Part shown: positions 2,110 through 49,743 of the stretch, piece by piece
Numbering within the stretch: position 1 is the first letter of the stretch
Layout: each line of letters opens with the position of its first letter
The notes under the pieces: generated by a model
What the model was told of the DNA's origin: nothing
Seen by the model: only the letters and a program-made list of their open reading frames with translations
Databases searched by the model: none
Translations under genes and position numbers: made by a program
Origin: Gemmatimonadales bacterium
GTDB taxonomy: Bacteria > Gemmatimonadota > Gemmatimonadetes > Gemmatimonadales > GWC2-71-9
DNA: 64,000 nucleotides
Direction of reading: 5' to 3'
NCBI GenBank assembly: GCA_036262935.1
Contig: DATAHW010000108.1
Location: forward strand, 23,958 to 87,957

Positions 2110-2203
2110 AGTCGTGAGTCGTGAGTCGTGAGTCTTGGGTCGTGGGTGTACGGCCCGGGAGCCTGGAAACCAGCTCACGACCCATGACTCACGACTCACG
2201 ACT
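2110..2203. repeat. long imperfect hairpin built from tandem heptamers (GTCGTGA array facing inverted CACGACT array)
   Basis: Left arm is AGTCGTGAGTCGTGAGTCGTGAGTCTTGGGTCGTGG. Right arm is CACGACCCATGACTCACGACTCACGACT. The loop is about 25 nt. It fills the murB-to-acetyltransferase intergenic gap, and the murB stop codon lies inside the right arm. Confidence 0.8.
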
Positions 2204-3151
2204 CCCCCCCGAGATACTCCCCGAGCGCGCCGATCAGCTTCACCTCGGGCTCGAGCCGCACGCCGGTGCGAGCCTCGACCTGCCGCCGGACGAGCTCGAT
2301 CAGCGCACGCACGTCCGCGGCGGTCGCTCCGCCGGTGTTCACGATATAGTTGGCGTGCATCGGCGATACCTCGGCGGCGCCGACGCGAGTGCCCTTGAGC
2401 CCGGCCGCCTCGACCAGTTGCCCGGCGGTCCGCGGCCCATCGGTTCGCTGCCAGCTCGGCCCGGACGGGTTCCTGAAGACGCTGCCGCAGCACGGCTGAT
2501 TGAACGGCGTCCCGCGCTGGCGCCACTCGAACATTTCGGCGATCTGCTCGTCGAGCTCGGCCTGCGCCGCGGGACGGAGGCGCACCACCGTCTCGAGCAC
2601 GATGTTCCCGTCCAGCCCGCTCCGCCGGTACGTGAACGGGACCTCGGCCCGACCGAGCACGTGGTCCCGGCCGGTGGCGTCGACGACGGTGACGCGCTCG
2701 ACCACTGCCGACCAGTCGCCCCCGTGGCAGCCGGCGTTCATGTAGACGCCACCGCCGACGGAGCCCGGCACGCCGACGAACACGTGCAGCCCCGCGAAGC
2801 CCGCTGCCGCCGTCCGGCGCGCGGCGAGCGGTGCCGGGAGCCCTGCACCCAGGGTCCAGCAGTGGCCGTCCTGCCGGAGCGTGTCGAGCCCCTTCCCCAG
2901 CCGGATCACCAGCGCGTCGAGTCCGGCGTCCGGGAGGAGGATGTTGGAGCCAAGGCCCAGCGCGAACCACGGGATCCCGGCCGCATGTGCGGCACTGATC
3001 GCCACACTCACATCTTCGGCGGTGGCCGGCAGGACCACGGTCGCCGGACCGCCGATCCGGTAGGTGGAATATCGCGCGAGCGGTTCCCCTTCCCGCACCT
3101 CGCCCCGCACCCGCTGGCGGAGCGCCCGCGAAAAGGCGGGGTCGCGCGCCG

Positions 3152-8365
<5,214 letters not shown>

Positions 8366-8699: not shown

Positions 8700-8728
8700 C
8701 GCCCGGCCGGGTGTCGTGCGCCGGCCAA

Positions 8729-8760
8729 GAAAAAGGGGACCCTCGGGTCCCCTTTGTCGT
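8729..8760. terminator. bidirectional Rho-independent terminator between convergent rpmB and rplQ
   Basis: AAAAAGGGGACC-CTCG-GGTCCCCTTTGTCGTTT. The stem is 10 bp with a 4-nt loop. An A-run on one side and a T-run on the other give a U-tract in both transcription directions. Confidence 0.7.
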
Positions 8761-8781
8761 TTCCGGCCGCCCGGGCTCCCG

Positions 8782-17034: not shown

Positions 17035-17118
17035 GCCGAAGTGGTGGAACTGGTAGACGCGCTGCGTTCAGGGCGCAGTGGGCGCAAGCCCGTGCGGGTT
17101 CGAGTCCCGCCTTCGGCA
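17035..17118 (+). tRNA. tRNA-Leu (anticodon CAG), long variable arm, CCA not encoded
   Basis: Hand-folded as GCCGAAG/TG/GTGG-AACTGGTAGA-CGCG/CTGCG-TTCAGGG-CGCAG/TGGGCGCAAGCCCGT/GCGGG-TTCGAGT-CCCGC/CTTCGGC-A. All four stems are Watson-Crick. The layout matches E. coli tRNA-Leu(CAG). Confidence 0.9.
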
Positions 17119-17124
17119 TGGGGC

Positions 17125-17204
17125 GGAAGGACGGAAAGGCGGAAGGACGGAAGGTAAGGCACGCCGGAGCCACGTGCCGTTTCCTTCCGTCCTTCCGTCC
17201 TTCC
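17125..17204. repeat. long imperfect hairpin built from tandem octamers (GGAAGGAC array facing GTCCTTCC array)
   Basis: The sequence is GGAAGGACGGAAAGGCGGAAGGACGGAAGGTAAGGCACG, loop CCGGAGCCA, then CGTGCCGTTTCCTTCCGTCCTTCCGTCCTTCC. It exactly fills the gap between convergent tRNA-Leu and the CysO-MoeZ gene. Confidence 0.8.
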
Positions 17205-18641
17205 TCAATACCGCGCCATCCCCGGTTCCACCCGCTCCGCCCAGGCATCGATGCCGCCGGCCAGGCTGCGGACCTTGCCGAAACCGGCGCCCCGCAGGAT
17301 CTCGAGCGCCTTCATCGAGCGGCTGCCGTGGTGGCACTGCGTGACGATCTCGGCGTGGCCGTCGAGCTCGTTCAGCCGATCGGGAAGTTGGCTCAGCGGG
17401 ATGAGCCGGGCGCCCTCGATGTGAGCGATCTCCCATTCGTGCGGCTCGCGGACGTCCAACAGTACCAGCTCGGCCCCATTGGCAGTGCGCTCCTGCTGGA
17501 ACTCCTCAACCGAAATCTCCGGCCCCGCATACTCCGGCTCCGCGCCGATCCCGCAGAAGGCCTGATAGTCGATCAGCTCGTGAATCGTCGGGTGGTCGCC
17601 GCAGATCGGGCAGTTCGGGTCCTTTCGCAGCTTGAGCTCGCGGAAGCGGAGCTTCAAGGCATCGAACAGCACCAGGCGGCCAACGAGCGAGTCACCCTCG
17701 CCGAGGATCCACTTGATCGTCTCGAGCGCCTGCAGGCAGCCGATGATCCCGGGCAGCACGCCCAGCACGCCGCCTTCGGCGCAGCTCGGCACCAGTCCCG
17801 GAGGCGGCGGCTCGGAGTAGAGGCAGCGATAGCACGGCCCTTCCTTGGCGTAGAATACCGACGCCTGTCCCTCGAACCGGAAAATGCTGCCGTAGACGTT
17901 CGGCTTCCCGAGCAGGACGCAGGCGTCGTTCACCAGGTAGCGGGTCGGGAAGTTGTCGGTGCCGTCCACGACGATGTCGTAGTCGCGCAGGATCTCGAGC
18001 GCGTTCTCCGAGGTAAGGCGGGTCTCGTGCCCGATCACGTTGACGTTGGGGTTGAGATCCAGGAGGCGCTCCCGGGCCGAGTCGAGCTTGGGGCGGCCGA
18101 GGCTGGCGGTGCCGTGCACCACCTGACGCTGAAGATTGGTGAGGTCGACCGCGTCGAAGTCCACGATGCCGATGGTGCCGACGCCCGCGGCCGCCAGATA
18201 GAGCGTGAGGGGCGAGCCCAGGCCGCCGGCTCCGATCGTGAGCACCCGCGCGGCCTTGAGCTTCCGCTGGCCTTCGAGGCCCACTTCCGGCAGCAGCAGG
18301 TGACGCGAGTACCGCAGCACCTCGGCATGGGAAAGCTTCGGCAGATCCGTCTCCGTCGCCGGGCGGCCGCCCGCGATGCTCGGCACGATGGTGAGCACGT
18401 CGCCCGCGCTCACCGCTGTGGCCGTGGACTCGAGCTGCCGGATGTCGGTGTCGTTGAGGTAGAGGTTCACGAAGTTCCGGAGCTTCCCGTCGTCCTGGAC
18501 GAGGTGGCGCCGGAGGCCGCCGTGGGCGGCGAGCAGCCCGTCCAGCACTTCACCCACGGTGGCGCCGGCCACGGGAACGGCGTCGCGCCCGCCGGTGAAG
18601 TTGCGGAGCGGGGTCGGAATGGAAACGGTCACGGACATCAT
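17205..18641 (-). CDS. fusion protein: CysO/MoaD/ThiS-like beta-grasp sulfur carrier (about aa 1-93, ending ...VPSIAGG), MoeB/ThiF-type adenylyltransferase (E1-like) and a C-terminal rhodanese domain (MoeZ-like)
   Basis: N-terminus MSVTVSIPTPLRNFTGG...FVNLYLNDTDIR...GDVLTIVPSIAGG closely resembles, from my recollection, M. tuberculosis CysO. It continues into LSHAEVLRYSRHLLLPEVGLEGQRKL...VLTIGAGGLGSP (ThiF), CxxC pairs (CYRC, CPIC) and rhodanese (LLDVREPHEWEIAHIEGARLIP...CHHGSRS). Confidence 0.85.
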   Translation of the reverse strand: MMSVTVSIPTPLRNFTGGRDAVPVAGATVGEVLDGLLAAHGGLRRHLVQDDGKLRNFVNLYLNDTDIRQLESTATAVSAGDVLTIVPSIAGGRPATETDLPKLSHAEVLRYSRHLLLPEVGLEGQRKLKAARVLTIGAGGLGSPLTLYLAAAGVGTIGIVDFDAVDLTNLQRQVVHGTASLGRPKLDSARERLLDLNPNVNVIGHETRLTSENALEILRDYDIVVDGTDNFPTRYLVNDACVLLGKPNVYGSIFRFEGQASVFYAKEGPCYRCLYSEPPPPGLVPSCAEGGVLGVLPGIIGCLQALETIKWILGEGDSLVGRLVLFDALKLRFRELKLRKDPNCPICGDHPTIHELIDYQAFCGIGAEPEYAGPEISVEEFQQERTANGAELVLLDVREPHEWEIAHIEGARLIPLSQLPDRLNELDGHAEIVTQCHHGSRSMKALEILRGAGFGKVRSLAGGIDAWAERVEPGMARY

Positions 18642-20012: not shown

Positions 20013-20045
20013 CCAAACGAAAAACCCGACCGGACGGGTCGGGTT
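20013..20045 (-). terminator. Rho-independent terminator/attenuator between the Rrf2 regulator gene and cysM
   Basis: Minus strand reads AACCCGACC-CGUCC-GGUCGGGUU followed by UUUUCGUUU (9-bp stem, 5-nt loop, U-tract). The cysM Shine-Dalgarno follows immediately. Confidence 0.6.
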
Positions 20046-25581: not shown

Positions 25582-26846
25582 GACTCCAGGATTCCGCGAT
25601 AGACGCCGAAGATCCGGTCCAGCACCGCGTCCCAGCCGTGGTGCGCCTCCGCGTAGCGCCGGCCGGCGGCGCCGAGCGCCGGGAGATCGCCCCGGAGGAG
25701 GTGCTCGGCCTGCGCCGTGAGCGCGGCCGCATCGCCCGCGGGGAACGTCGCGCCGCCGCCCGAGCGCTCCACGGTCTCCGCCACGCCGCCGCGGTCGGCG
25801 GAGAGGAGGGGCGTGCCGCTCGCGATCGCTTCGAGCGCGGAGAGGCCGAACGTCTCGATCGAGCACGGCGCGACGGCGAGATCGGCGGCCGCGAGGAGGT
25901 CGGCCAGCCGGTCGCGGTCCTGCTGGAACGGCAGCCAGTGCCATCGCTCGCTCCCCGCCCGGCGCTGCAGCCGCCGCCGCGCGGGGCCATCGCCCACGAG
26001 CACCAGGCCCGCTCCGGTGCGGCGCTCGACCTCGGGCCACGCGGCGAGGAGCAGATCGACCTCCTTCTCCGCCGCCAGCCGGCCCACATAGATCGCGAGC
26101 GGCCCCGACGGGAGGCCATGCCGGCGCCGCGTCTCGGCCGCGGCGGCGCGGCGTCTGGGATGGAAGCGATCGAGGTCCACGCCGAGCGAGACGCGGACCA
26201 CGCGCTCCACCCCCTCGCGCTCGAGCTCACGGGCCACGAAGTCGGACGGCGCGAGCGTGGCCCGCACCATCCGGCCGAGCCGGCGGACGTAGCGCCAGGC
26301 GAAGCCGGCGGCGGTCCGGCGCACGCCGCCCGCACGCTCCGGCCAGGGAGCGATGACCCGGGGAAAATTGCTGTGGTAGAACCAGAGCACCGGCAAATCC
26401 ACCCGCCGCGTGGCCAGGTGCACCAGCCAGGGCGCGAACCAGGTGCTCCCGACTTCGATCAGATCGGGCCGCTCGTGCGCCACGATGCGGCTGGTCGAGC
26501 GCGTGGCGAGCATGAAGCGGTACGGCTTCTGGGTGGGCACACTGGGGCCGTGAAGGCGGTAGCAGCGGACGCCACTCGCCTGGAGAATCTCGTCGCGGGC
26601 CCCGGGAACGATGATGGCCTGCCGCAGCGCGGGACGGCGCTGCACGTAGCGCGCCTTCTGCAGCAGATAGGTGCGCACGCCACCGGTTGTTTCACCAAAG
26701 AACTCCGTGATGTCGAGAACGCCCAGGCTGGCGGCGGGACGGAGTCGCGGCGGGAGCTCGAGCCGCGAGATGTCGAGCGAGGCGCTCGCCCCGCCCGCGA
26801 CGACCGCCTCGAGGTCGGGAATCGCCGCCGCGGCGGTCTCAGTCAG
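25578..26846 (-). CDS. family-4 (GT-B, GT1-type) glycosyltransferase; start codon unresolved
   Basis: The conserved body runs from VLDITEFFGETTGGVRTYL through GRLAAEKEVDLLL and ETFGLSALEAIASGTPLL (E-x7-E). High GC3 begins right after the zinc-ribbon ORF stop, but that stretch has no in-frame ATG/GTG/TTG. The only candidates are CTG 26846 and ATT 26852. Confidence 0.78.
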   Translation of the reverse strand: MTETAAAAIPDLEAVVAGGASASLDISRLELPPRLRPAASLGVLDITEFFGETTGGVRTYLLQKARYVQRRPALRQAIIVPGARDEILQASGVRCYRLHGPSVPTQKPYRFMLATRSTSRIVAHERPDLIEVGSTWFAPWLVHLATRRVDLPVLWFYHSNFPRVIAPWPERAGGVRRTAAGFAWRYVRRLGRMVRATLAPSDFVARELEREGVERVVRVSLGVDLDRFHPRRRAAAAETRRRHGLPSGPLAIYVGRLAAEKEVDLLLAAWPEVERRTGAGLVLVGDGPARRRLQRRAGSERWHWLPFQQDRDRLADLLAAADLAVAPCSIETFGLSALEAIASGTPLLSADRGGVAETVERSGGGATFPAGDAAALTAQAEHLLRGDLPALGAAGRRYAEAHHGWDAVLDRIFGVYRGILES

Positions 26847-27054
26847 AACAATCCCCGAGCGGGTAGACGGTCCCGCAGTTGGGGCACGGATTCTTGCAGC
26901 CGGTGGCGCGCACCGGCACCTGGAAGCCGCAGCGGTTACAGGCGGGCGCGCGGTCAGGCGGTCGGGCCGTCGGGCGGTCGGGGGAGCCGGCCGTCGTCCC
27001 TGACCGGGCGACCGCCTGACCGCCTGACCGCCTGGCCGCCCGCCCGTCATCCAA
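26839..27054 (-). CDS. candidate small zinc-ribbon protein (C-terminus CNRCGFQVPVRATGCKNPCPNCGTVYPLGDCSD)
   Basis: In 26839-26940 this frame has near-uniform G/C third positions, whereas the overlapping GT4-frame extension does not. It has a CxxC...CxxxCxxC pattern. The only usable start is TTG 27054, straddling the MBL stop, which puts the N-terminal half inside the octamer hairpin. Confidence 0.4.
   Translation of the reverse strand: MDDGRAARRSGGQAVARSGTTAGSPDRPTARPPDRAPACNRCGFQVPVRATGCKNPCPNCGTVYPLGDCSD
26941..27044. repeat. long imperfect hairpin built from tandem octamers (GGTCAGGC/GGTCGGGC array facing GCCTGACC array)
   Basis: Left arm is GGCGGGCGCGCGGTCAGGCGGTCGGGCCGTCGGGCGGTCGGGGG. 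Right arm is CCCTGACCGGGCGACCGCCTGACCGCCTGACCGCCTGGCCGCCCGCC. It lies immediately downstream of the MBL hydrolase stop. Confidence 0.75.
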
Positions 27055-27694
27055 TGGGAAACGCCCCGGTGAGGAAGGGATTGGTGAGGCGCTCCACACC
27101 GATCGTGGTCGCGGGGCCGTGGCCGCTGTAGACCGTGGTCGAATCGGGGAGGGAGAGGAACTGCGACTGGATGGTGGCCATCAGCGTCGCGGAGTCGCCG
27201 CCGGGGAGGTCGGTACGTCCCACCGAGCCGTTGAACAGCACGTCGCCGCCGAATACCATGTCGTGCCCGCTGAAGCTCACGCTCCCGGGCGAGTGCCCGG
27301 GCGTGAAGCGCACGTCGAACTCGAACCGGCCGACCGTGACCCGGCTCCCGGGCCGGAGCTCGACGTCGGGCGGCGGCGCGGGGTCGAGCCGCATGCCCAG
27401 CCAGGCGCCGAACTGGGGCAGCGCGTCGTAGATCGGGCGGTCGAGTGCGTGGAGATGGATCGGAACGCCGGTGGCCTGCTTGACGGCGCCCACACCCATG
27501 ATGTGGTCGATGTGGGCGTGGGTGAGCCACACCGCCCGCAGAGTCCAGGCGCGCGTGTCGAGCTCGGCGAGGAACATCGCGGGCTCCTCGCCGGGATCGA
27601 TGAGCACCGCCTCGCGGGTCCCGCGGTCGGCCACCAGATAGCAGTTCTGGGCGAACTGCCCATTGGGCAGCGCCACCACCTCCAGCTCAGACAC
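27047..27694 (-). CDS. MBL-fold metallo-hydrolase, glyoxalase II (hydroxyacylglutathione hydrolase)-like
   Basis: 215 aa with THAHIDHIMG (HxHxDH), TPGHSPGS and GRTDLPGGD motifs. Confidence 0.88.
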   Translation of the reverse strand: MSELEVVALPNGQFAQNCYLVADRGTREAVLIDPGEEPAMFLAELDTRAWTLRAVWLTHAHIDHIMGVGAVKQATGVPIHLHALDRPIYDALPQFGAWLGMRLDPAPPPDVELRPGSRVTVGRFEFDVRFTPGHSPGSVSFSGHDMVFGGDVLFNGSVGRTDLPGGDSATLMATIQSQFLSLPDSTTVYSGHGPATTIGVERLTNPFLTGAFPIG

Positions 27695-40305: not shown

Positions 40306-40596
40306 TCAGTACGCGCCGATCGGCCGGTGGCCCGGATCGGCCATCGTGTGCACGAGGGTCAGGAAGCGCTTGGCCAGCTTGTCGGCCTCGCTCTCCGCGA
40401 CCTGGTTGGTCTCCACCGTAACGAGCGTATAGTGGCCGCCCTCCGCGTCCGCGGTGACGCCGATCTGGCCGATGGTGCCGGTGAACCGGCGCCGCCTCGG
40501 CAGCTCCTCGACCGGCGCGAGCCGCGCGCCGAAGAACGCCGTGGCCCGCGCCAGGACGGCATCGGGGGGGAGCTGGGTGCGGTGGAAGTATTTCAT
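40306..40596 (-). CDS. small hypothetical protein (96 aa)
   Basis: MKYFHRTQLPPDAVLARATAFFGARL...HYTLVTVETNQVAESEADKLAKRFL has balanced composition and high GC3. No family recognised. There is no Shine-Dalgarno; the ATG abuts the heptamer repeat. Confidence 0.55.
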   Translation of the reverse strand: MKYFHRTQLPPDAVLARATAFFGARLAPVEELPRRRRFTGTIGQIGVTADAEGGHYTLVTVETNQVAESEADKLAKRFLTLVHTMADPGHRPIGAY

Positions 40597-40598
40597 AT

Positions 40599-40644
40599 GA
40601 GTCGTGAGTCGTGGGTTGTGAGTCGTGGGTCGTGACTCACGACT
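40599..40644. repeat. tandem heptamer array (GAGTCGT GAGTCGT GGGTTGT GAGTCGT GGGTCGT) ending in a short inverted copy (GACTCACGACT)
   Basis: Same unit as the hairpin at 2110-2203. It fills the whole 40-nt gap between inositol-phosphate synthase and the 96-aa ORF, and contains the synthase stop codon. Confidence 0.7.
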
Positions 40645-41974
40645 TTCCGGCCTCCTGATAGTACTCCATCCCCAGATGCGTGATCTGCTCCTCCCCCATC
40701 AGATACCGCAGCGTGTTCTTGAGCTTGGTCTGCTGGATGAACAGGTCGTGCTCGGGGTAGAGGCCCGGGGCCACCTGCGGGCTCTTGAAATAGAAGGACA
40801 GCCACTCCTGGATGCCGCTCAGGCCGGCGCGCTGCGAGAGGTCGAAGAACAGCGCCAGGTCGAGCACCAGCGGGGCGGCCAGGATCGAGTCGCGGCAGAG
40901 GAAATCGACCTTGATCTGCATCGGGTAGCCCAGCCACCCGAAGATGTCGATGTTGTCCCAGCCTTCCTTGTTGTCGCCGCGCGGGGGATAGTAGTTGATC
41001 CGCACCTTGTGATACAGGTCGCCGTAGAGCTCGGGATAGAGCTTCGGCTGGAGGATGAAGTCGAGCACGCCGAGCTTCGATTCTTCCTTGGTCTTGAAGC
41101 TCTCGGGATCGTCCAGCACCTCGCCATCCCGGTTGCCGAGGATGTTGGTCGAGTACCAGCCCGCCACGCCCAGCATCCGGGCCTTGAACATCGGCGAGAG
41201 CACGGTCTTGACCATCGTCTGGCCGGTCTTGAAGTCCTTGCCGCCGATCGCCACGCCCTTCGACTTGGCGAGCGCCACCATGGCGGGGAAGTCGCAGGTC
41301 AGGTTGGGCGCGCCGTTCGCGAACGGGACGCCCTCCTGGATGGCGGCCCAGGCATAGAGCATCGAGGGGGCGATGGACGGATCGTTCGCGTCCATCGCGC
41401 GCTCGAAGGCCTCGAGCGTCTCGTGGGCCGGGCCGTGGCTGATGAAGATCTCGGTCGAGGCGCACCAGACCACCACCAGGCGATCGCAGCCGTGCCGCGC
41501 CTTGAAATCGCGGATGTCCTTCCGCAGCGCCTCCGCGAGGTCGCGCTTGGTCTTGCCGACCTTGACGTTCTTGCCCTCGAGCCGCTTGACGTAGTTCTGG
41601 TCGAACACCGCCGGCATCGGCTGGATCGCCTTGAGGAAGTCGGCGATGGGCTCGAGGTGGTCGTGCCGGTCGAGCACCCCGGCCTCCCGGGCGGCGGTGT
41701 AGGCATCGTCCGGCACCGGGTCCCAGGCGCCGAAGACGAGATCCTCGAGGGCCGCGAGCGGGACGAACTCCCGGATCAGCGGCGCGCGCGCCTCGGTCCG
41801 CTTGCCCAGCCGGATCGTGCCCATCTGGGTGAGCGAGCCGATGGGCCGGGCCGCCCCGCGCCGCACGTTCTCGACGCCGGCGATGAATGTGGTCGCCACG
41901 GCACCCAGCCCGACGCAGAGCACCCCAAGCTTTCCCTGAGCCGGCGCAATGCGCCGGCCGGTCTGATCCGCCAC
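40637..41974 (-). CDS. ino1: myo-inositol-1-phosphate (inositol-3-phosphate) synthase
   Basis: 445 aa. GKLGVLCVGLGAVATTFIAG (NAD site), WCASTE, GKDFKTGQT and LAAPLVLDL give the MIPS layout. Confidence 0.88.
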   Translation of the reverse strand: MADQTGRRIAPAQGKLGVLCVGLGAVATTFIAGVENVRRGAARPIGSLTQMGTIRLGKRTEARAPLIREFVPLAALEDLVFGAWDPVPDDAYTAAREAGVLDRHDHLEPIADFLKAIQPMPAVFDQNYVKRLEGKNVKVGKTKRDLAEALRKDIRDFKARHGCDRLVVVWCASTEIFISHGPAHETLEAFERAMDANDPSIAPSMLYAWAAIQEGVPFANGAPNLTCDFPAMVALAKSKGVAIGGKDFKTGQTMVKTVLSPMFKARMLGVAGWYSTNILGNRDGEVLDDPESFKTKEESKLGVLDFILQPKLYPELYGDLYHKVRINYYPPRGDNKEGWDNIDIFGWLGYPMQIKVDFLCRDSILAAPLVLDLALFFDLSQRAGLSGIQEWLSFYFKSPQVAPGLYPEHDLFIQQTKLKNTLRYLMGEEQITHLGMEYYQEAGKS

Positions 41975-42786: not shown

Positions 42787-42875
42787 AACTGTCATCCCGA
42801 GCGAAGTGAGGGATCTACTCGGCTGGTCCCCGAGCGAGGCGCAGTAGATCCCTCGCTTCGCTCGGGATGACAGTT
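42787..42875. repeat. palindromic element: 33-bp inverted arms (AACTGTCATCCCGAGCGAAGTGAGGGATCTACT / AGTAGATCCCTCGCTTCGCTCGGGATGACAGTT) around a 23-nt loop
   Basis: The arms are complementary at 32 of 33 positions; the mismatch is a G-U pair in RNA. It sits in the 250-nt gap downstream of the NamZ-like gene and upstream of the CDP-alcohol transferase/ino1 operon. The architecture differs from the k-mer hairpins. Confidence 0.8.
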
Positions 42876-42905: not shown

Positions 42906-44150
42906 CTACTCCGGATACAGCAGCACCGCGCGCCTCCGCTCGCGAAAGCGCTGGAGCGCCGGCTCCCACCCGTGAACGATGTCCGCCGAGGGAATGCCGG
43001 CGTCGATCTGGCCCCGCAGCCTGGGCCCACCCGCCAGCCGGTCGAACTGTCGGGGAATCCACTGGAACCGGTCGCCGTGCACGGCCCGGACGGCCGCCAG
43101 CAGATGCACGGCGACGGCGGTCGGATCGTAGCGGGCCCGATCGGTGGACTCGAGCCGGATCCCGCTGAGCAGCGTGTCGGCGTACTTGCCGTCTCCCGGG
43201 TGCTCTGGCGTGAACGTGACGCCCGCGAACCGCACGCCCGGAAGTGATGCCCGCCGCACCCGCGCCAGCACCGCCGAGGTGTCCAGCCACGGCGCCCCGA
43301 TCTGCTCGAAGGGCGCGGCCGAGCCGCGGCCCACACTCAGGTTGGTGCCCTCGAACAGGCACAGGCCCGGGTAGTGGTACAGGCTCTCGACCGACCGGAG
43401 ATTCGGACTGGGCGGCACGAACGGGAGTCCGGTGGCTTCGAGTCCCGCGGCTCGCCGCCATCCCGAGACGGGCACCACGGCGAGGTCGGTCGTGAGCCCC
43501 AGGTCCGATCGCGCCAGCCGCGCGAGCTCGCCCAGCGTCATGCCGTAGCGCATCGGCACCGCGAGCAGCCCCACAGGCGACGCATATGCCGGGTCGAGCA
43601 CGTTTCCCTGCACCGCCCCGCCGATCGGGTCGGGGCGGTCCAGCAGCACCACCCGGATCCTTCGCCGGGCCGCGGCCCGCATCACCTCGACCGTCGTGAA
43701 GAGATAGGTGTAGTAGCGGGCACCCACGTCCTGCAGGTCCACGAGCAGCAGGTCCACCCCGTCGAGCATCGCGTCGGTGGGGGCGGTATTCCGGCCGTAC
43801 AGACTATAGATTGGTAACCCGGTAGCCGAATCGATCGACGAGGCGACCACGGCGCCCGGCTCGGCGGCGCCGCGGAAGCCGTGCTCGGGACTGAACAGCG
43901 CCACGAGCCGGACGCCCGCCGATCGCAGGCGCACCACGTCGCTGATCCCTTGTGCATCCACGGCCGCCTGGTTGGTCACCAGCCCGACCCGACGGCCGTG
44001 CACCACCGCCAGGCTGTCGGCCAGCAGCACGTCGATGCCGGGCCGCACCGTGCCGGTCGCCGGCGCGAGGGATGTGGGGCCGCGTGCCCCGCAGCCCAGC
44101 GTCCATCCGCAGAGTCCCAGTACCACGAGAGATCTGTGCACGCCAAGCAC
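42906..44150 (-). CDS. DUF1343-family lipoprotein, NamZ/YbbC-like exo-beta-N-acetylmuramidase
   Basis: Lipoprotein signal (M)LGVHRSLVVLGLCGWTLGC. VGLVTNQAAVD, ALFSPEHGFRG, LVDLQDVGARYYTY and LDRPDPIGG motifs. The start is GTG 44150 or GTG 44141. Confidence 0.85.
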   Translation of the reverse strand: MLGVHRSLVVLGLCGWTLGCGARGPTSLAPATGTVRPGIDVLLADSLAVVHGRRVGLVTNQAAVDAQGISDVVRLRSAGVRLVALFSPEHGFRGAAEPGAVVASSIDSATGLPIYSLYGRNTAPTDAMLDGVDLLLVDLQDVGARYYTYLFTTVEVMRAAARRRIRVVLLDRPDPIGGAVQGNVLDPAYASPVGLLAVPMRYGMTLGELARLARSDLGLTTDLAVVPVSGWRRAAGLEATGLPFVPPSPNLRSVESLYHYPGLCLFEGTNLSVGRGSAAPFEQIGAPWLDTSAVLARVRRASLPGVRFAGVTFTPEHPGDGKYADTLLSGIRLESTDRARYDPTAVAVHLLAAVRAVHGDRFQWIPRQFDRLAGGPRLRGQIDAGIPSADIVHGWEPALQRFRERRRAVLLYPE

Positions 44151-48112: not shown

Positions 48113-48243
48113 CTGCGGTAAGCAGTGAGCGGTAAGCGGTAAGAGGGGGTGGTCGGAGGAGCGCAGCTCGCCGGGCCACCCCCTCTTCCTTAAGTACCGC
48201 TCACCGCTCACCGCTCACCTCTTACCGCTCACCTCTCACCCCC
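48113..48243. repeat. long hairpin built from tandem heptamers (GCGGTAA/GCAGTGA array facing ACCGCTC array) with a perfect 12-bp core AAGAGGGGGTGG/CCACCCCCTCTT
   Basis: The sequence is CTGCGGTAAGCAGTGAGCGGTAAGCGGTAAGAGGGGGTGG, a 23-nt loop, then CCACCCCCTCTTCCTTAAGTACCGCTCACCGCTCACCGCTCACCTCTTACCGCTCACCTCTCACC. It starts right after the iscA stop and runs up to the conserved N-terminus of the next permease. Confidence 0.8.
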
Positions 48244-49743
48244 CTGTCCCCTCTCGACCTCGCCGTCATCGGGCTCTACTTCGCCGCCACGCTTGGCATC
48301 GGGCTGTGGACCACCCGGCGCCAGGAGACGGCCGGCGACTACTTCCTGGGCGCCCGCAACCTCCCCGCCTGGGCCGTGCTCCTCTCGATCGTGGCCACCG
48401 AGACCTCCGCGCTCACGGTCATCTCCGTACCCGGCATCGGTGCCCGCGGGAGCCTGGTGTTCCTGCAGCTCGCGTTCGGTTACCTGGTGGGCCGCATCGT
48501 CGTCGCGGGCTGGTTGCTGCCCGGCTACTTCCGGGGAGAGCAGGAGACGGCCTATGCCCGCCTCGAAACGCGATTCGGTCCGGGCACCCGCCGCCTGGTT
48601 TCGGTCGTCTTCCTGGTTACCCGGTTCCTCGGCGACGGCGTCCGGATCTACGCCGGCGCGATCCCGCTCGCGCTGGTCACCGGGTGGAGCATCCCGTTTT
48701 CCATCCTCGCCATGGGCGGCGTGACGCTGATCTACACCTGGTTCGGCGGACTCAAGGCGGTCGTCTGGGCGGATGTGGTGCAGCTCGCGGTGTACGTGGC
48801 CGGCGGCGTGGCGGCCCTGCTCATCGCGTGGCAGTTGGCGGGCGGCCCCGGCGTGGCGCTCGGTACCGCGGCAGCGGCCGGCAAGCTTCGGCTCATCGAC
48901 CTGTCAGTGGACTTCAGCTCCACCTACACGCTGCTGGGCGGCCTCGTGGGCGGCGCCATGCTCTCGGCTGCGTCGCACGGCACCGACCAGCTCATCGTGC
49001 AGCGCCTGCTCGCCACCCGCTCGCTCAAGGATGCCCGCGTGGCCCTGATCGGCTCCGGCGTGGTGGTGATCGCCCAGTTCCTGCTCTTCCTGCTCGTCGG
49101 CTCGGCCATCTGGGCGGCCCATCTCGCGCCCGCCGGGCTGCCGGCCGACCAGATCTTCCCGCGCTTCATCGTGGAGCAGCTTCCCGCCGGGCTCGCCGGG
49201 CTGGTCGTGGCCGGGATCCTGGCGGCCGCGATGAGTACGATCAGCTCCTCGATCAACGCGCTCGCCTCCTCGATGACCCACGATCTGTACGCCGGCTGGA
49301 CCGGCCGGCGGGACCCCGAGCATCTGCTCGTAGTCGGGCGGATCTTTTCCGCCGTCTGGGGCATCGGGCTCATCGGCGGCGCGCTCTTCTTCGAGCGTTA
49401 CGCGGGGGGCAACGACACGCCGGTCGTGGTGCTGGCGCTTTCGATCGCCTCGATCACTTACGGCGCGCTGCTCGGCACCTTCCTGCTCGCCACCCGGTGG
49501 CCGCGCGCGAGGGGGCGCGACGTCGTCGGCGCGGTGCTCGTTACCGTGGTGGCGATGCTGATCGTCGTGTTCGCCCGACCTCTCGCCGGCATGGCGGCCC
49601 TGGACTGGCTCCGGCCGGTGGGCCGGCTCGCGTGGCCGTGGTACGTGCCGCTCGGCACGCTGCTGGCCGTCGGCACCGGTGTCGCCCTGAGCTATCTTCC
49701 GGACCGTGCCGCCCTGCCCACTTCACGGATGAGCGAACGGTGA
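48244..49743 (+). CDS. sodium:solute symporter (SSS) family transporter; no canonical start codon at the expected N-terminus
   Basis: The track ORF starts at GTG 48376. The same frame upstream encodes the conserved first TM helix and motif (PLDLAVIGLYFAATLGIGLWTTRRQETAGDYFLGARNLPAW). That frame is open back to a TAA at 48133 with no ATG/GTG/TTG. CTG 48244 is the only plausible start. Confidence 0.72.
   Translation: MSPLDLAVIGLYFAATLGIGLWTTRRQETAGDYFLGARNLPAWAVLLSIVATETSALTVISVPGIGARGSLVFLQLAFGYLVGRIVVAGWLLPGYFRGEQETAYARLETRFGPGTRRLVSVVFLVTRFLGDGVRIYAGAIPLALVTGWSIPFSILAMGGVTLIYTWFGGLKAVVWADVVQLAVYVAGGVAALLIAWQLAGGPGVALGTAAAAGKLRLIDLSVDFSSTYTLLGGLVGGAMLSAASHGTDQLIVQRLLATRSLKDARVALIGSGVVVIAQFLLFLLVGSAIWAAHLAPAGLPADQIFPRFIVEQLPAGLAGLVVAGILAAAMSTISSSINALASSMTHDLYAGWTGRRDPEHLLVVGRIFSAVWGIGLIGGALFFERYAGGNDTPVVVLALSIASITYGALLGTFLLATRWPRARGRDVVGAVLVTVVAMLIVVFARPLAGMAALDWLRPVGRLAWPWYVPLGTLLAVGTGVALSYLPDRAALPTSRMSER

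Follow-up and report, generated by a model that had tools for sequence, protein, structure and literature searches.

Tandem heptamer and octamer arrays that have probably grown in place into long gene-end hairpins in a Gemmatimonadales genome

Heptanucleotides are the commonest long-unit simple sequence repeats (SSRs) of bacteria, according to Mrazek et al. (2007) as summarised in PMC4679880 and PMC4692102. In Xanthomonas, Rehm et al. (2015, PMC4692102) reported 70-75 convergent pairs of GGGAATC heptamer arrays per genome and noted their stem-loop potential; these arrays are transcribed, and related genomes and species differ in array length but usually not in type (single or pair). The TAACTGA repeats of Beggiatoaceae and the STRR heptamers of cyanobacteria adjoin gene ends or start codons with a bias in gene orientation, and a control of translation was suggested for them (PMC4679880); the heptamer repeats of Calothrix are of the same kind, as far as their citation in PMC4692102 goes. 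Such arrays are almost always direct, with one inverted case in 170 sets (PMC4679880). Hairpins that are created and maintained by template switching are also documented (PMC8794818, PMC5941160). Here we analysed a stretch of 64,000 nt (the window) from contig DATAHW010000108.1 of a soil Gemmatimonadales bacterium, in which five gene ends carry tandem arrays of 7- or 8-nt units, most of them paired with an array of the reverse-complement unit to form a long hairpin. We consider it probable (about 0.65) that these are hypervariable microsatellites, grown in place at Gemmatimonadales gene ends into long quasi-palindromes that serve as gene-end hairpins. Their nature and origin, namely a microsatellite growing into a gene-end palindrome or to either side of one, are well supported by comparison of sequences; a role as leaky terminator or as a stem protecting the 3′-end, with a strength that varies with unit number, is plausible but unproven.

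Four sites of the window resemble the Xanthomonas pairs, in that one unit lies on opposite strands, always convergent, within the same intergenic region. Xanthomonas has one dominant G-tract unit, which was studied as a G-quadruplex former (PMC4692102), whereas the window has at least four units in 64 kb (GTCGTGA, GCGGTAA, GGAAGGAC, and GGTCRGGC), octamers included, without G3 tracts; some relatives do use GGGGAAC. The arrays are also similar to the long-unit SSRs of Mrazek et al. (2007), which in the available summaries have tandem units of 5-11 nt, a dominant period of 7, an intergenic bias, and a proposed origin by polymerase slippage: we found at least three head-to-tail copies beyond chance, copy variation between strains, and an intergenic bias. 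Those summaries concern direct arrays, and the paired hairpin arrangement and its polarity fall outside them. Like the STRR and TAACTGA repeats, the window arrays are intergenic tandem heptamers set against gene ends or starts; unlike them (they are genome-wide families with one or few units), the arrays described here occur in another phylum and have other units. With the template-switch hairpins they would share the step by which one replication event copies the opposite arm and creates or perfects a stem, but the published cases are single short stems (PMC8794818; PMC5941160), and here the stem is a microsatellite, so the palindrome can keep growing.

The original prediction, made from the letters of the window, could not assign the slippage-prone construction and the site-specific units to any described class of element. 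That part has to be given up, since an intergenic heptanucleotide excess and convergent heptamer pairs are already published (PMC4692102): this is a real, non-random and lineage-wide feature, and a little-studied but already described kind of repeat rather than a new class. What is distinct here is the phylum, the several units (including octamers) in one genome, the lack of G-quadruplex potential, the link to a terminator core, and a within-species series of birth and growth. The in-place origin, the terminator-core link, and the within-species unit steps seen here are not described for Xanthomonas (PMC4692102).

Arrays and hairpins in the window

Tandem Repeats Finder reported arrays of period 7 or 8, with 3-6 units each, at all five sites where the original prediction had placed them; they make up four long hairpins and a fifth site, site 2, that is mainly a direct array (Table 1). 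These hairpins account for four of the window's five longest distinct inverted repeats. None of 200 shuffles folded as well as the four long hairpins (z from -5.2 to -7.6), and site 2 folds weakly. Probes made of two copies of each unit had 6-12 matches in the window versus 0.2-1.3 in dinucleotide shuffles, and a strict detector of inverted array pairs found 2 in the window versus a mean of 0.01 per shuffle; this strict version missed two of the four hairpins, a looser version recovered all four, and period-6 matches were dropped as codon-periodic false positives. Arrays, array pairs, and folds thus far exceed what shuffled sequence gives. In addition, an Rfam scan of the whole window gave tRNA-Leu as the sole match at the gathering score and left the hairpins unmatched.

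The placement of the sites is not random either. By a rough gene map (64 gene calls) the intergenic share of the window is 7.3%, so that four or five sites would all be intergenic by chance with p between ~3e-5 and 2e-6. All paired arrays are intergenic. The lone coding array lies inside carB and preserves the frame: its octamers, which have the unit of hairpin 4, are translated as GRSGGQAV in a variable linker, which shows that the same unit can expand within a gene (the essential carbamoyl-phosphate synthase gene) if the frame is kept.

The architecture predicted for the five sites (a direct array, a loop, and an array of the reverse-complement unit) is indeed shared, but the loop of 10-25 nt is not found: the arrays are 22-50 nt apart, and an inner non-repeated stem takes part of this space at loci 3 and 5. 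Likewise, there are several unit sequences, but they are not mutually unrelated as had been thought, because GTCGTGA (= GTGAGTC) and GCGGTGA/GCGGTAA (= GTGAGCG/GTAAGCG) have a common GTRAG core. The perfect 12-bp core at site 5 (AAGAGGGGGTGG/CCACCCCCTCTT) and the five direct copies with a short inverted copy at site 2 are present as described.

Growth of the arrays within the species and at orthologous spacers

Copy number was directly seen to differ between strains, in agreement with the slippage-prone construction that had been proposed. The fullest series is at site 2, where contigs L087-L095 all encode an identical 96-aa protein and match the window at 96-99.6% identity in the flanks, yet differ in spacer length (12, 40, 66, 73, 80, and 87 nt). 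The 12-nt allele has a single seed unit, the 40-nt allele has five direct units as in the window, and the 66-, 73-, 80-, and 87-nt alleles have a full hairpin, whose 3′ arm lengthens in steps of 7 nt. The 66-nt allele equals the 40-nt allele plus an insert of 26 nt, and this insert opens with 15 nt (GTCGTGAGTCGTGGG) that match the reverse complement of the neighbouring CCCACGACTCACGAC exactly; the second arm thus appears to bear the signature of an inverted duplication by template switching. Site 2 in the window is an intermediate allele, as sibling strains have the full hairpin there. At locus 3, strain alleles with flanks 99.3-100% identical have 3, 5, or 8 GGAAGGAC units in the ThiF-side arm, and the interrupted tRNA-side arm is invariant among them, so the arms can be lopsided (8 units versus 4). 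At locus 1, the strain contigs L002 and L003 differ by three uncompensated substitutions in the 5′ arm.

Short-read assemblies can miscount repeat units; the same alleles nonetheless recur across independent assemblies, and the same hairpins with the same flanks were found in JGI, ENA, and Logan assemblies. We also observed that metagenome contigs often begin or end inside arrays (L001 at 1-55, L004 at 1, L016 at 1-68, L085 and L086 at their 3′ ends, and L109-L112), L001 opening with a poly-C run that is an artefact; such repeats are therefore likely to be under-represented in metagenome-assembled genomes. An exact-protein look-up with the site-4 hydrolase returned only L085 and L086, which end within the repeat, and the same look-up with the IscA-type protein of site 5 returned no match.

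We then compared orthologous spacers in related genomes (loci L005-L084; 80 fetched loci with a total of 1.28 Mb). The inositol-1-phosphate synthase gene assigns the window to Gemmatimonadales; the nearest of these genomes are 88-91% identical to the window in this protein and ~81-82% in DNA. The spacer between the IscA gene and the symporter gene was compared in 22 related genomes. In eleven more distant relatives it holds a GC stem and a T run, i.e., an ordinary terminator (for example, GAGGGCCCG..CGGGCCCTC TTTTCG), and in L007 the core stem alone. The window, L005, and L006 have in common the core GGGTGGCC..GGCCACCC, outside of which the arms are GTRAGCG/CGCTYAC, GTGAACG/CGTTCAC, and GTGAAAA/TTTTCAC, respectively; since these outer units differ in matched fashion, the unit has changed on both arms in step. 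L013, L049, and L016 have the core stem within arms of further units, with a T run after the stem in L013 and L049. A hairpin thus persists at the locus-5 site across genomes that are only ~81-82% identical in DNA.

The other two orthologous spacers show similar gradations. The spacer between the synthase gene and the gene of the 96-aa protein is 5-30 nt long without a hairpin in most relatives; L005 and L006 have a GTGAAAA/TTTTCAC hairpin there, and the window has its CACGACT units. The series at the third spacer runs from none at all in some relatives, through an 8-bp palindrome in L005 and a direct (CTATTAG)x3 in L006, whose unit derives from the final 7 nt of the gene itself, stop included, to full hairpins in L007, L014, and L020. 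These graded series show that the hairpins in all likelihood arise in place.

The sequence comparisons show a process of four steps. Local sequence seeds a unit, either on or beside a stop codon or at the base of a gene-end hairpin that was already there; whole units are then gained or lost by replication slippage; an inverted copy of the array is written alongside and becomes the second arm, most simply by an intrastrand template switch during replication; and the arms remain mirror images, with the unit changing on both arms together between species. Copying by template switch explains mirror-image variants and paired changes without selection.

Occurrence in relatives, polarity and gene context

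A simple detector found 14 further tandem-arm hairpins, with at least ten different units among them, in the relatives, so that the feature extends, with other units, to many sites of related genomes; the remaining four of its 18 hits are hairpin 1 itself in the strain contigs L002 and L003 and two weak matches with two copies each (L034 and L065). The units include GTGAACG, GTGAAAA, GCTATCR, GGGGAAC, GAAGCGA, GTTGGTC, GGAGCAC, and GAGTGTCG. In 1.33 Mb there are 17 near-perfect arrays of at least three copies with period 7 and 4 with period 8 (the shuffle has none of either), and this period-7 peak is the published heptanucleotide excess. Similar to the window, the hairpins of the relatives lie between co-directional or convergent genes, with their first nucleotide 0-11 nt past the upstream stop.

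The hairpins have a strong polarity: in 18 of 22, G and purines prevail in the 5′ arm and C in the 3′ arm, with 47 NTG start codons in the 5′ arms versus 11 in the 3′ arms, and 43 stop codons versus 16. Among 80 metagenome loci with (GTCGTGA)x3, an inverted partner is present in 15, and all 15 read 5′-(GTCGTGA)n...(TCACGAC)n-3′. The gene on the left side reaches the array in 44 of 59 cases, its reading frame ending within the first units or at them; this figure is partly automatic because the GTCGTGA unit carries a stop in every frame. From the placement of the arrays next to genes we infer how this polarity may arise. After gene ends, arrays would adjoin with the stop-bearing strand in sense; before gene starts, they would adjoin with the start-free, G-poor strand in sense; an inverted copy could be added only on the side away from the gene, and both routes would give the polarity observed. 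Ordinary T-tailed terminators have no skew towards a G-rich 5′ arm (11 versus 14), and the polarity is therefore not inherited from the composition of stems in general.

The unit GTCGTGA itself occurs in more than 120 metagenome stretches on contigs with 33-74% GC, hence in many phyla. Its arrays (L096-L175) have 3-30 copies, with inverted partners seen only in contigs above 63% GC, and arrays of other heptamers (GTGAGTG, GTGAGAC, CGACTAT, GGTCCGT, and GACTCTG) are often near them. One contig classed as viral (IMG/VR; L222, 8166-8295) has a GTCGTGA inverted pair with the same polarity as in bacteria. GTCGTGA is not a special unit, however: viral contigs give 2 hits for it versus 4 and 11 for control heptamers of the same composition.

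Turning to the genes around the five sites, which were named by Pfam scans, four of the sites do lie between tightly packed co-directional genes and one spans a convergent gap between tRNA-Leu and ThiF, as the original prediction had it (Table 1). The first unit starts 0-3 nt after the upstream stop at sites 3-5. At sites 1 and 2 the stop is within the first unit: the murB stop TGA (2196-2198) is inside the first unit of hairpin 1 (..GAGTCGTGA), and the synthase stop TGA (40637-40639) is inside an AGTCGTGA unit, the first of the array at site 2 (..AAGTCGTGA). The hairpins occupy whole spacers, with 3-22 nt from the last unit to the next start; for example, the final unit of hairpin 1 stops 10 nt short of the transferase ATG at 2099. 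Downstream of hairpin 4 there is a possible small zinc-ribbon open reading frame (ORF) and then the gene of a GT4 glycosyltransferase; both lack a canonical start codon nearby.

Table 1. Coordinates, gene context, and folding of the arrays in the window; arms of hairpin 1 and site 2 are given as in the transcript.
Feature	Position	Strand	Gene context	Units and parts	Tandem Repeats Finder arrays	Inverted repeat	RNA fold
Hairpin 1	2104-2204	minus	between murB (2196-3197, minus) and hexapeptide-repeat transferase gene (1506-2099, minus)	5′ arm (AGTCGTG)n 2174-2204; 3′ arm (CACGACT)n 2104-2147	period 7: 2110-2144, 2174-2204	2116-2144/2176-2204, 29 nt, 97% complementary	-65.2 kcal/mol, z -6.6
Site 2	40598-40644	minus	between inositol-1-phosphate synthase gene (40637-41974, minus) and gene of 96-aa protein (40306-40596, minus)	mainly direct array: five direct CACGACY units and one inverted unit	period 7: 40598-40635		z -1.9
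Hairpin 3	17122-17205	unstranded	fills gap between tRNA-Leu(CAG) (17035-17118, plus) and convergent ThiS-ThiF-rhodanese gene (17205-18641, minus; stop 17205-17207)	GGAAGGAC 17124-17154; GTCCTTCC 17181-17205; inner stem GGCACG...CGTGCC	period 8: 17124-17154, 17182-17204		minus strand -61.2 kcal/mol, z -7.3; plus strand -59.3 kcal/mol, z -6.3
Hairpin 4	26941-27046	minus	directly 3′ of stop (27047-27049) of metallo-beta-lactamase-fold hydrolase gene (27047-27694, minus)	GGTCRGGC/GCCYGACC octamers, 26941-26982 and 26999-27046	period 8: 26941-26982, 26999-27040	26943-26980/27009-27046, 38 nt, 87% complementary	-86.5 kcal/mol, z -5.2
Hairpin 5	48113-48243	plus	between IscA/ErpA-type gene (stop TAA 48110-48112) and sodium:solute symporter gene (start CTG 48244)	5′ arm GCGGTAA/GCAGTGA 48115-48143; 3′ arm ACCGCTC 48196-48240; conserved non-repeated core stem and loop ~48138-48185	period 7: 48115-48143, 48196-48240		-77.6 kcal/mol, z -7.6
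carB array	4957-4989	minus	inside carB coding sequence	four direct GGTCRGGC copies, no inverted partner			

Several further features of these genes were observed. The symporter gene (48244-49743, plus) has no ATG, GTG, or TTG from the upstream stop to 48376, and its Pfam domain begins before 48376; the start position has CTG in the window and in L005-L008, and ATG, GTG, or TTG in other relatives, which looks like a conserved CTG start codon. At 26679-26940 (minus), the GT4 glycosyltransferase gene has no canonical start upstream of the conserved N-terminal strand (..GVLDITEFF), which is preceded by a CTG. The zinc-ribbon ORF is an open frame of 33 codons between the GT4 gene and hairpin 4, with a Cys-X2-Cys...Cys-X2-Cys pattern and sub-threshold Pfam zinc-ribbon matches only; its sole in-frame canonical starts (GTG at 27099 and TTG near 27056) are both upstream of hairpin 4, which would be coding if either were used. 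A different, non-tandem hairpin lies at 42787-42875, with 33-nt arms that are 97% complementary (z from -10 to -11) and the motif GTCATCCCGAGCGAAG..GGGATC, inside the gap of 250 nt that follows the gene with its end at 42906; among all the fetched loci, its 16-mer recurs exactly just once, in an Acidobacteriaceae contig (L076).

Possible roles and rival explanations

A GC-rich stem-loop directly after the gene (0-3 nt past the stop codon, or overlapping it) is found at all five sites, as in intrinsic terminators, which are often bidirectional, and the core at locus 5 is orthologous to stems with a T run. In AT-richer relatives the 3′ units carry a T run (TTTTCAC) and the 5′ units an A run. The claim that the hairpins are unrelated to terminators thus fails at locus 5, where relatives have a GC stem and T run at the same spot and the conserved core of the window hairpin is that stem; in addition, the locus-3 hairpin lies between convergent genes. 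Canonical terminators (hairpin and T run) are scarce, with one or two convincing cases in 64 kb (20023-20045, minus, and ~8720-8767) and 27 in 1.33 Mb on both strands. A stem-loop of 30-47 pairs would be transcribed along with the neighbouring genes and may be what this lineage uses as a gene-end hairpin (an attenuator or leaky terminator that also protects the 3′-end), where relatives have U-tract terminators, and its strength would shift with copy number.

Several observations weigh against this functional proposal or limit it. The window hairpins have no U tract (this claim of the original prediction agrees with a terminator scan that called none of the five sites), their stems are 3-5 times the usual length, and four of the five sites are within tight strings of co-directional genes, which leave no room for a new promoter, so that these four cannot be full terminators. 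A terminator ancestor is evident at one of the five sites only (locus 5), and no core stem is obvious in several of the GTCGTGA hairpins found on other contigs. Fold energies of sense and antisense RNA for 15 hairpins showed no consistent difference, the sense strand being not better and often worse, and alleles L088-L093 have mismatches that are A.C in the sense RNA; lacking a sense-strand advantage, the data give no sign that selection acts on the transcript and not on, or by, the DNA, and a mutational process at the level of DNA accounts for them no less well than does selection on RNA. The lopsided strain alleles indicate that perfect pairing is not kept in the short term. As for the origin, template switching is inferred from one allele pair, and the short-read assemblies on which allele lengths depend may have miscounted repeats.

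It is possible, therefore, that the hairpins are a pure by-product of mutation (slippage and template switching wherever intergenic DNA tolerates them, with no role, and with selection removing harmful versions only), and we take this seriously while inclining against it. Wide length variation within the species, lopsided arms, the lack of a fold advantage in the sense strand, arbitrary units (as the control heptamers in viral contigs indicate), and an array tolerated inside carB are all as such a process would have it. It accounts less readily for the strict placement 0-11 nt past stop codons, the polarity (18 of 22 hairpins and 15 of 15 GTCGTGA pairs), and a locus-5 hairpin that sits on a terminator site and persists across genomes ~81-82% identical in DNA, although placement, polarity, persistence, and terminator-site position could still be filters on a neutral process. 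A device of translation is unlikely. Here a hairpin filling the spacer would put stop and start side by side at the foot of its stem, a terminating ribosome would melt the foot and free the start, and translational coupling would be kept despite an insert of 100 nt, with copy number tuning the effect. The geometry is suggestive: the stop is inside the first unit or at most 3 nt from it, the start is 3-22 nt past the last paired unit at loci 1, 2, and 5, and the shortest site-2 allele is a coupled spacer of 12 nt; moreover, the 3′ arms are nearly free of NTG (11 versus 47), Shine-Dalgarno use is low, and an effect on translation was proposed for start-adjacent heptamer arrays of Beggiatoaceae and Nostoc (PMC4679880; bioRxiv 10.1101/2022.06.06.494920). 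But this geometry is automatic for any spacer-filling hairpin, and locus 3 has no downstream gene. Nor is the missing Shine-Dalgarno sequence, which had been noted for the downstream genes, a special feature, as only ~20 of the 64 rough gene calls have one.

It is very unlikely that the arrays are binding sites whose 7-8-nt register is recognised by an RNA or a protein (for example a transcription factor, a cold-shock-domain protein, or Rho acting at the C-rich arm): C-rich, G-poor 3′ arms do resemble Rho loading sites and heptamer registers are bound by cold-shock proteins (discussed in PMC4679880), yet the 64 kb of the window have at least four units and the relatives ten or more, the unit drifts between species at one orthologous site, and the array is mostly locked in a stem. 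A family of mobile elements (REP/BIME or MITE) inserted at these sites is effectively excluded. The likeness to REP/BIME elements that had been suggested holds for placement, both being intergenic imperfect palindromes at gene ends (REPs are thought to protect mRNA 3′-ends), and one unit does recur at two window sites (GTCGTGA, and likewise GGTCRGGC). It does not hold for sequence: REPs have a genome-wide consensus and are spread by RAYT transposases, whereas the window hairpins are site-specific and have grown in place, and no shared palindromic consensus of 20-40 nt, as in REPs, was found among the five sites or the further hairpins of the relatives, nor were terminal repeats or target duplications. 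The steps of 7 or 8 nt start from a single seed copy already in the short allele, the L006 unit derives from the last codons of the host gene itself, and Rfam matched nothing but the tRNA. A MITE was rejected on the same seed unit and whole-unit growth and on the lack of a duplicated flank; the earlier exclusion of one mobile family stands, with growth in whole-unit steps from local seed sequence as its ground. The same is true of CRISPR, whose repeats of 23-50 nt with unique spacers are unlike contiguous units of 7-8 nt. Least probable of all, and likewise effectively excluded, are assembly artefacts (fold-back chimeras at repeats): short-read contigs often break at arrays (L001 with its poly-C start; L004, L085, and L086, which end in the repeat), but hairpins and flanks recur in the independent JGI, ENA, and Logan assemblies, and hairpins are also present in megabase-sized contigs of related genomes (L005 and L007).

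Microsatellites grown in place at gene ends remain our preferred explanation. They leave a staged record, from seed unit to direct array, inverted copy, and growth of both arms, within one species and at one site across related species, and they indicate that long near-perfect stem-loops can arise without stepwise compensatory selection. As short-read assemblies break at such repeats, they would be undercounted in metagenome-assembled genomes. More speculatively, and we consider this rather doubtful, a microsatellite ratchet of slippage and template switching may build and resize gene-end hairpins in the GC-rich Gemmatimonadales, which are poor in U-tract terminators, with unit number as a heritable, fast-mutating dial on read-through, mRNA 3′-end stability, or stop-start coupling. 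If so, this would be a contingency-type mechanism in free-living soil bacteria, and selection would have left its trace in the strict polarity, with the G-rich arm 5′ and the arm free of start codons 3′. If the hairpins act on transcripts, they would provide fast heritable variation in operon expression in an abundant, poorly studied soil phylum, and might explain how gene ends are marked in lineages poor in U-tract terminators.

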